Assembly (NCBI GenBank): GCA_951406725.2
Contig: OX597822.1
Location: 69,502,001-69,566,000 of the forward strand
Reading direction: 5' to 3'
Source: Octopus vulgaris
Lineage: Eukaryota
DNA length: 64,000 nt
Below are positions 1,195 through 38,604 of the stretch, piece after piece. The translations under genes were made by a program, and so were the position numbers. Numbering within the stretch: position 1 is the stretch's first letter; each line of letters begins with the position of its first letter. Below the pieces are notes generated by a model. The model did not search any database. It had not been told where the DNA came from and worked only from the letters and a program-made list of their open reading frames with translations.

Positions 1195-1566
1195 TCATAT
1201 TTCAAGAGCTCTCCAAATATTGCTAGTTTTGAGTCTGTCAGTCGGTGATTTTGCGAGCATTCTGGGCACTAATGGCTTCAGGTTGTCAGGAATGAGTTCA
1301 AAATATTCCACATCAGCAGTATCAACCTCGTTAAGATAGGTGGAAATGGATAAGGTAGTTTTGTCTCCAAAGGCCTTCTTTTTTATGTATAATTCACAAA
1401 CCAAAAGACCAAAACCAAACACATCCGCTGGTGATTCGTATATTCCGCCTCTTAGAACTTCTGGTGCAAGATACACCATATCCTGAATCGGTTGGTCTGA
1501 ATCTACAATTTTCAGTTTACGTGGTAATGCCATTCCGGTAAGTTTCACTTGTTGGTGCCAATTAAC
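1195..1566 (-). CDS. Coding exon 10: kinase subdomains VII-XI and stop
   Basis: tttatAG|GTT; VKLTGMA at the DFG position, [28 protein letters not shown] at 1195-1197. Confidence 0.93.
   Translation of the reverse strand, partial: VNWHQQVKLTGMALPRKLKIVDSDQPIQDMVYLAPEVLRGGIYESPADVFGFGLLVCELYIKKKAFGDKTTLSISTYLNEVDTADVEYFELIPDNLKPLVPRMLAKSPTDRLKTSNIWRALEI

Positions 1567-38604: not shown

Follow-up and report, generated by a model that had tools for sequence, protein, structure and literature searches.

A dynamin-like GTPase with a C-terminal pseudokinase in Octopus vulgaris, and its kinase-intact neighbour

The window, the whole stretch of DNA analysed here, comprises 64,000 nucleotides of the Octopus vulgaris genome (G000:C9:69,502,001-69,566,000) and has the composition of animal DNA rich in microsatellites; coordinates below are window positions unless prefixed G000. 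From open frames and splice sites we rebuilt a ten-exon gene on the minus strand, running from 38604 to 1195, which we refer to as the window gene and its product as the window protein. All nine introns have GT-AG boundaries (9/9) and consistent phases, and the coding sequence of 3006 nt corresponds to 1001 residues and a stop codon. A kinase-intact paralogue, hereafter the neighbour, lies beyond the end of the window. The features are as follows.

38326..38604, minus strand: coding part of exon 1, residues 1-93, a weakly conserved N-terminus, drawn from open frames and splice sites.
29464..29674, minus strand: exon 2, residues 94-163, the helix ahead of the G domain and beta1, ending within the first G1 codon.
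23840..24123, minus strand: exon 3, residues 164-258, with G1 GETGAGKS (ends 24101) and G2 T191 (24043-24041); Pfam Dynamin_N E 1e-10, top PDB match BDLP 2j68.
22361..22510, minus strand: exon 4, residues 259-308, with G3 DTPG (22492-22481); joint to exon 5 seen as a contig loose end.
20726..21063, minus strand: exon 5, residues 309-420, with G4 NRWD (20961-20950) and the end of the G domain; joint to exon 6 seen in 3/3 runs guessed to be RNA.
19829..20099, minus strand: exon 6, residues 421-511, first half of the putative helical stalk.
18110..18295, minus strand: exon 7, residues 512-573, putative stalk.
12781..13454, minus strand: exon 8, residues 574-797, paddle-equivalent loop, second stalk half and pseudokinase N-lobe; tip-loop marks RRGS (13418-13407) and a basic amphipathic segment, residues 604-622 (13364-13308); kinase marks PQSLFAEM (12899-12876), ITIR (12848-12837) and the alphaC residue E793 (12797-12795).
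2312..2552, minus strand: exon 9, residues 798-878, degenerate catalytic loop HPEVSLDS (2341-2318), with one match only in the genome.
1195..1566, minus strand: exon 10, residues 879-1001 and stop, GMA in place of DFG, a clade-conserved PR, APE and the C-lobe; Pfam Pkinase E 6e-11.
G000:C9:69599405-69659196, plus strand: the neighbour, 13 exons, 984 aa, a gene model made without an RNA check.

The reconstruction reproduces the ten phase-consistent exons and the frame of about 1001 residues proposed in an earlier note on this DNA, and the predicted product matches O. vulgaris CAI9728025.1 at every residue. The O. sinensis protein XP_029642150.1 shares 997/1001 residues with the window protein, the O. 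bimaculoides counterpart is 87% identical, and a full-length orthologue is present in Argonauta; database names of the Octopus counterparts are 'uncharacterized' or those of a generic kinase. Splicing was checked over the stretch 17935-21420, using runs whose kind, RNA or DNA, is our guess. Introns 5 and 6 are skipped exactly by single contigs (3790, 3219 and 3826 nt) in 3/3 runs guessed to be RNA, from three studies, and neither the exon 5-6 nor the exon 6-7 joint occurs in the one large DNA-like run (0/1), which covers those introns. One listed contig loose end is the 3' end of exon 4, so the exon 4-5 joint was seen there as well. The RNA check of junctions that the earlier note had called for thus succeeded in part, for these three joints, while the other six (1-2, 2-3, 3-4, 7-8, 8-9 and 9-10) went without direct sighting. 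The spliced contigs extend 1041-1247 nt ahead of exon 5, where the open frame needs 924, and 1381-1927 nt past exon 7, where it needs 1287, so that on either side they could hold every remaining coding exon. Orthologues of 1018-1023 aa carrying both domains are, moreover, encoded on Logan contigs of 3.2-3.3 kb. The window gene is confirmed as a real spliced gene.

A very improbable alternative, already largely refuted, is that a GTPase gene and a decayed kinase pseudogene have been wrongly joined, or that the model is an annotation artefact. The joints 7-8, 8-9 and 9-10 lack a direct sighting, and intron 8 spans 10.2 kb packed with retroelement debris; however, the gene is annotated identically or near-identically in three Octopus species, the Argonauta orthologue is full-length, and the contigs described above are sized for the whole frame or encode two-domain orthologues. 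Among related proteins 93/170 cover both domains, and identity to O. bimaculoides is similar in the kinase part (88%) and in the G domain (90%). The locus is therefore read as one gene rather than two, as first proposed.

The 95 nt ahead of the ATG (38699-38605, minus strand) begin at a good splice acceptor, the spliced contigs carry 117-323 nt before that ATG, and there may be non-coding exons farther out, in the direction of the neighbour. Two candidate exons were set aside: a 64-aa open frame in intron 6 (18786-18595), which has no good acceptor and is skipped by all three spliced contigs, and open frames near 10363-10607, passed over for the phase-fitting exon 9 at 2552-2312.

Repetitive elements are found in and beyond the introns. 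Intron 8 holds, at 2880-6360 (plus strand), tandem fragments of a retroelement C-terminus (zf-RVT) antisense to the window gene, with a 456-bp duplication among them at 5444-6358. Tandem repeats of 184 bp at 19159-19523 and 59613-59977 belong to a very abundant dispersed element, the first copy reaching enormous contig depth in 4/4 runs. A near-complete LINE-type element occupies 55507-58894 (plus strand) with three overlapping frames, an endonuclease (Pfam Exo_endo_phos) followed by frames of 513 and 150 aa; the first starts with what we take to be a CCCH-like zinc-finger stretch. Just past the 3' end of the window gene, and convergent with it, lie exons of about 200 aa (G000:C9:69492001-69502000, plus strand) that presumably encode repeated von Willebrand A domains.

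Scored against the definitions of motifs G1-G4, the G domain of the window protein is intact, as the earlier note had stated, with G1 GETGAGKS at 164-171, G2 T191, G3 DTPG at 265-268 and G4 NRWD at 343-346. Pfam places Dynamin_N at 160-298 (E 2e-18, above cut-off) on P0001, the O. sinensis near-copy (997/1001), on which the GBP Pfam domain has no match. A kinase-free family profile, built from 15 family proteins in which little or none of the kinase is present and searched against PDB sequences, matched BDLP 2j68 over positions 109-637 (E 3e-37), covering the G domain and the helical body. Its 15 PDB matches comprise BDLP, C. jejuni DLP1/2, MFN1/2, IniA, Slr0869 and IRGB10, with no dynamin, Mx or GBP structure among them at E <= 1e-4, and exon 3 alone retrieves its PDB relatives in the same order, BDLP 2j68 being best. 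On these matches the G domain is closer to BDLP and the mitofusins than to dynamin, Mx or GBP, in keeping with its original classification. It is followed by a putative helical stalk of about 300 aa, proposed from profile homology to the BDLP body, the family profile aligning to BDLP residues 50-656. Elsewhere in the genome, a separate locus on C26 is one that we take, from its motif, to be the octopus mitofusin, and a Dynamin_N match at G000:C8:85237083-85237385 lies within a single open frame of 637 aa that has no family-profile match.

Pseudokinases are proteins with a kinase fold that lack the beta3 Lys, the HRD Asp and the DFG Asp. Pfam Pkinase matches residues 790-995 of the near-copy P0001 (E 9e-20), and the window kinase retains 0/4 tested catalytic residues: the Gly-loop is gone, reading PQSLFAEM, the beta3 Lys is replaced by R779, HRDxKxxN has become HPEVSLDS (869-876, with E871, and S876 for Asn) and DFG has become GMA (889-891, with G889). 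By these substitutions the window protein falls within the definition, which bears out the dead kinase described earlier. Across the 23 rows of the window clade, E793, R or K at 779, and R894 are each present in 23/23 and E871 in 22/23. By such measures the window pseudokinase is under no decay, its identity to O. bimaculoides lying close to that of the G domain and its clade residues being fixed. Because the alphaC Glu, the basic beta3 residue and the activation-segment Arg are fixed in the clade, the pseudokinase probably persists as a folded module for docking or allosteric control.

The window protein belongs to a family with full-length homology in the same order, namely G domain, stalk and kinase fold, with named members from sponge, Trichoplax, corals, bivalves, abalone, cephalopods, hemichordates and amphioxus. 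As read from these sequences, it is an animal family, ranging from sponge to amphioxus, of BDLP/mitofusin-type GTPases with a stalk and a kinase, with expansions in amphioxus, corals and bivalves. Its domain architecture can already be seen in automatic annotations, and no description of the family was found in the searched literature (most subscription journals, InterPro and PANTHER lay outside that search), so that the suggestion of an uncharacterised invertebrate family is apparently correct. Additional domains occur in P0017 and P0047: HEPN_DZIP3 at the N-terminus (coral) and a trypsin-like domain at the C-terminus. P0112, P0126, P0146 and P0162, at 780-820 aa, consist of a G domain and stalk with no C-lobe match; they may lack the kinase altogether or be truncated models.

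We aligned 85 rows, being the 93 two-domain relatives minus ten (P0001 as a near-duplicate and nine long or irregular proteins) plus two with 71-79% G coverage. All tested G residues are kept in 79/85 rows, and all four kinase residues in 45, three in 4 and two or fewer in 36, some of the 85 rows being near-duplicates. Intact kinases are in the majority, a point that the earlier note had missed. Full-length columns and kinase columns each unite the 36 dead rows in one clade (FastTree 1.0), a result that shared degeneration could be inflating. On non-kinase columns FastTree places the dead rows in three groups, and IQ-TREE, run on 43 rows, joins the 18 dead rows among them with support 0; DSTYK rows added by hmmalign had scattered in the FastTree of N-terminal columns and were therefore left out of the IQ-TREE analysis. 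Full-length and kinase columns thus support one origin for all kinase-dead members, which the non-kinase columns neither establish nor reject. The same IQ-TREE groups octopus, abalone and bivalve dead rows with one amphioxus row (SH-aLRT 98), from which the dead lineage is probably older than the mollusc-chordate split. The phylogeny that had been asked for places the window protein among kinase-dead mollusc rows, outside the DSTYK clade.

The proposal that the window gene is simply the octopus DSTYK orthologue with substitutions, which could draw on profile homology to DSTYK over the full length and on the automatic naming of some family members as 'DSTYK-like', is refuted and keeps next to no probability, as canonical octopus DSTYK lies elsewhere, on contig C15 (an exon there is 100% identical to O. 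sinensis DSTYK-like and 82-85% to the listed vertebrate DSTYKs), so that the window gene is not DSTYK, and ten DSTYKs form a clade of their own in the kinase tree (FastTree 1.0). The earlier note had compared the two, placing the activity of the window protein the other way round from that of DSTYK. Aligned by HHalign to 25 DSTYKs, the full-length family gives 100% probability across 815 columns; the G region alone gives 98.1% (E 1e-13), against less than 0.3% for 5/5 column-shuffled controls, and the stalk alone gives 5%, which is not significant. Neither GxxxxGK[ST] nor DxxG occurs in any DSTYK row (0/25), Pfam finds no G domain in the two DSTYKs tested, and Atlas feature matches of the mammalian DSTYK N-terminus are all to Dynamin_N clusters (0.77-0.79), which we treat as a lead only. 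DSTYK thus looks like a pseudo-GTPase, active-kinase member of the superfamily and a mirror image of the window gene. With its N-terminus a putative degenerate G domain of this kind, the reversed comparison holds: the window protein has intact G motifs and a dead kinase, DSTYK broken G1 and G3 and an intact kinase. A dynamin-like domain in DSTYK has no description in the searched literature. The accessible main text of the STING/DSTYK paper (PMC11933320) contains neither 'dynamin' nor 'GTPase', the accessible part of PMC9573974 no 'dynamin', and that of PMC11789081 no 'DSTYK'.

The neighbour locus, which the earlier note had missed, was first detected by a search of the genome with exon 3. Its kinase motifs are intact (GTGSFATV, AAVK, HRDLKMEN, DVG and APE), as are G1-G3, while G4 reads NKWE. 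The Glu in this motif (NKWE not NKWD; neighbour exon 5, L005:8036-8236), which may alter nucleotide specificity, also occurs in the kinase-active rows P0059, P0072 and P0081. Neighbour and window protein are 28% identical over the G region, and 6/9 window-gene introns coincide with neighbour introns in position and phase, among them the intron after exon 2, which in the window gene splits the first codon of G1. The two genes are divergent, head-to-head, with their ATGs 58,801 bp apart; the family profile finds no further family exon between the ATGs, and the long open frames there resemble, by eye, transposon debris. Genome searches found these two loci and no others, so the genome holds at least two family loci, with one copy found of the window gene, both being lower bounds.

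In the abalone Haliotis cracherodii, the dead P0084 (XP_071083349/350) and the active P0043 (XP_071083351) have consecutive accessions, on contigs of equal length, and in H. rufescens one scaffold of 2,013,603 bp bears the orthologues of both genes. P0084 groups with the window protein on non-kinase columns (SH-aLRT 97, nine-row clade), and P0043 falls with the octopus neighbour (FastTree 1.0) and, at SH-aLRT 100, with its nearest relative in the database, P0053. The active/dead adjacency thus appears to be kept between octopus and abalone. Amphioxus BRAFLDRAFT_81321 (cluster of the active P0025) and _81322 (cluster of the dead P0036) are likewise consecutive, but fall in subclades other than those of the octopus pair, and they are weak evidence because amphioxus has many family copies. 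Adjacency in abalone and amphioxus was read from accession order and contig size, not from DNA, and the adjacency of paralogues can be a mere relic of tandem duplication.

In most family rows a hydrophobic mid-stalk stretch aligns by profile with the hydrophobic stretch of BDLP. Calling a hydrophobic hairpin at a mean KD >= 1.9 over 19 residues at the paddle position, a cut-off set after viewing, we found it in 0/22 window-clade rows and 0/12 neighbour-clade rows, as against 37/51 rows outside both clades (11/14 dead, 26/37 active). The best 19-residue mean hydropathy in the paddle region of the window protein is 0.53, and we accordingly class the protein as DLP-like rather than with BDLP or the mitofusins. 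Loss of the hairpin makes direct membrane insertion doubtful, the options left being peripheral attachment or a role away from membranes, and, with both clades lacking it, there is no obvious membrane anchor in either partner. In place of the hairpin the window protein has RRGS followed by a basic amphipathic segment (hydrophobic moment 1.18 and net +4 over 604-621). A basophilic site in the tip loop occurs in 13/22 window-clade rows, against 4.7 expected by shuffling, for a pattern picked after viewing, and in 1/12 rows of the neighbour clade.

Bacterial DLPs are described in the accessible text of PMC6162298 as mostly adjacent gene pairs forming hetero-oligomers, with a division of labour in which one partner is often regulatory. 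Octopus has such an adjacent DLP gene pair, and because the bacterial pairs mostly work as hetero-oligomers we favour, with belief and doubt about evenly balanced, the reading that the window protein is the pseudokinase subunit of a hetero-oligomer with its kinase-intact neighbour. By analogy with bacterial DLP pairs and mitofusins, GTP binding would pair the G domains and move the stalk, with the labour divided between the paralogues: the window protein would supply an active G domain and the pseudokinase as docking module, and the neighbour the kinase. More speculatively, the neighbour's kinase or another basophilic kinase might phosphorylate the RRxS loop, at the tip of the stalk, and thereby control peripheral binding of the basic amphipathic segment to acidic membranes. 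The likeliest setting for such a complex would be endomembrane stress or cell-autonomous defence.

The pair could instead be a duplication relic, and the window protein a stand-alone, homo-oligomeric effector held shut by its own pseudokinase until an upstream signal arrives, by analogy with the mechanism of MLKL. The window protein has all its G motifs and a constrained pseudokinase, and the family is expanded in several lineages, includes members with HEPN_DZIP3 or trypsin domains and counts one relative that matches the defence-library DLP LeoA over 150-618, all of which would suit such an effector. The adjacency that appears to be kept between octopus and abalone, the single copy found in the genome (a lower bound), which is unlike a fast-turnover immune gene, and the missing hydrophobic hairpin nevertheless make this reading an unlikely one. 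An immune role, and with it the MLKL and Mx/GBP analogy of the earlier note, has indirect hints at the level of the family in the expansions, the HEPN and trypsin fusions, the LeoA match of one relative and the part of DSTYK in STING signalling (available text of PMC11933320). For the window protein itself there is no Leo match at E 1e-5, and PADLOC and NCBIfam return generic kinase and GTPase matches and a sub-threshold DynA match, which, being generic, are not evidence of a defence role.

Slightly less probable again is a membrane-independent scaffold or restriction factor that, having lost the hairpin, would form cytosolic polymers on protein or nucleoprotein targets bound by the pseudokinase. 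The hairpin is missing in 34/34 rows of both clades, and Mx proteins, according to the accessible part of PMC11789081, can act independently of membranes. Against this, a basic amphipathic segment is retained at the tip, BDLP, bacterial DLP pairs and mitofusins are the nearest relatives with a solved structure, and DSTYK is found at late endosomes, where it phosphorylates STING, in the available text of PMC11933320.

Returning to the hetero-oligomer, we can extend it, as a tentative proposal that is probably wrong in some part, to an ancient invertebrate two-gene machine. A DLP GTPase-kinase and a DLP GTPase-pseudokinase, neighbours since at least the cephalopod-gastropod split, would couple a kinase-to-pseudokinase switch to bacterial-DLP-style hetero-oligomers in cell-autonomous defence, and human DSTYK would be a surviving pseudo-GTPase member whose N-terminal DLP body targets endosomes. 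The family is an animal branch of the dynamin superfamily without description in the searched literature, and it offers three natural on/off states: both activities intact, kinase dead (the window gene) and GTPase motifs broken (DSTYK). The octopus pair is a concrete case for asking if animals use bacterial-style DLP hetero-pairs, and the comparison suggests what structure the N-terminal two-thirds of DSTYK may have.

Among known systems, MFN1, MFN2 and Fzo1 resemble the family in that their G domain and adjoining helices match its profile (E about 1e-14), whereas the window protein lacks the hydrophobic hairpin of mitofusins and has an added pseudokinase. RIPK3 and MLKL pair an active kinase with a pseudokinase bearing a helical effector domain, a logic that the octopus pair may share, although here the effector would be a DLP body and phosphorylation by the partner is putative; homology to RIPK3/MLKL was found in the kinase fold only. 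Bacterial DLPs (Nostoc BDLP 2j68, C. jejuni DLP1/DLP2 5owv, IniA 6j72 and LeoA) share with the window gene the G motifs and their spacing, alignment of the G domain and helical body to the family profile and, in the accessible text of PMC6162298, encoding as an adjacent pair. The window gene differs in being eukaryotic and intron-rich, in its C-terminal kinase fold, in the missing hydrophobic paddle and in a hetero-oligomer that is here putative, and C. jejuni DLP1 supplies a membrane anchor where neither octopus partner obviously does. The ROCO proteins LRRK1/2 likewise combine a GTPase and a kinase in one chain (ROC GTPase plus kinase, in the available part of PMC10492769), but the window protein has a dynamin-type G domain rather than ROC-COR, and no ROC or COR Pfam match. 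DSTYK, linked in the same source to urinary tract development and spastic paraparesis, differs in its intact kinase, in its broken G1 and G3 and in a helical region that has no significant alignment on its own, yet it presents the same order as the window protein: a G-like domain, a helical region and a kinase.
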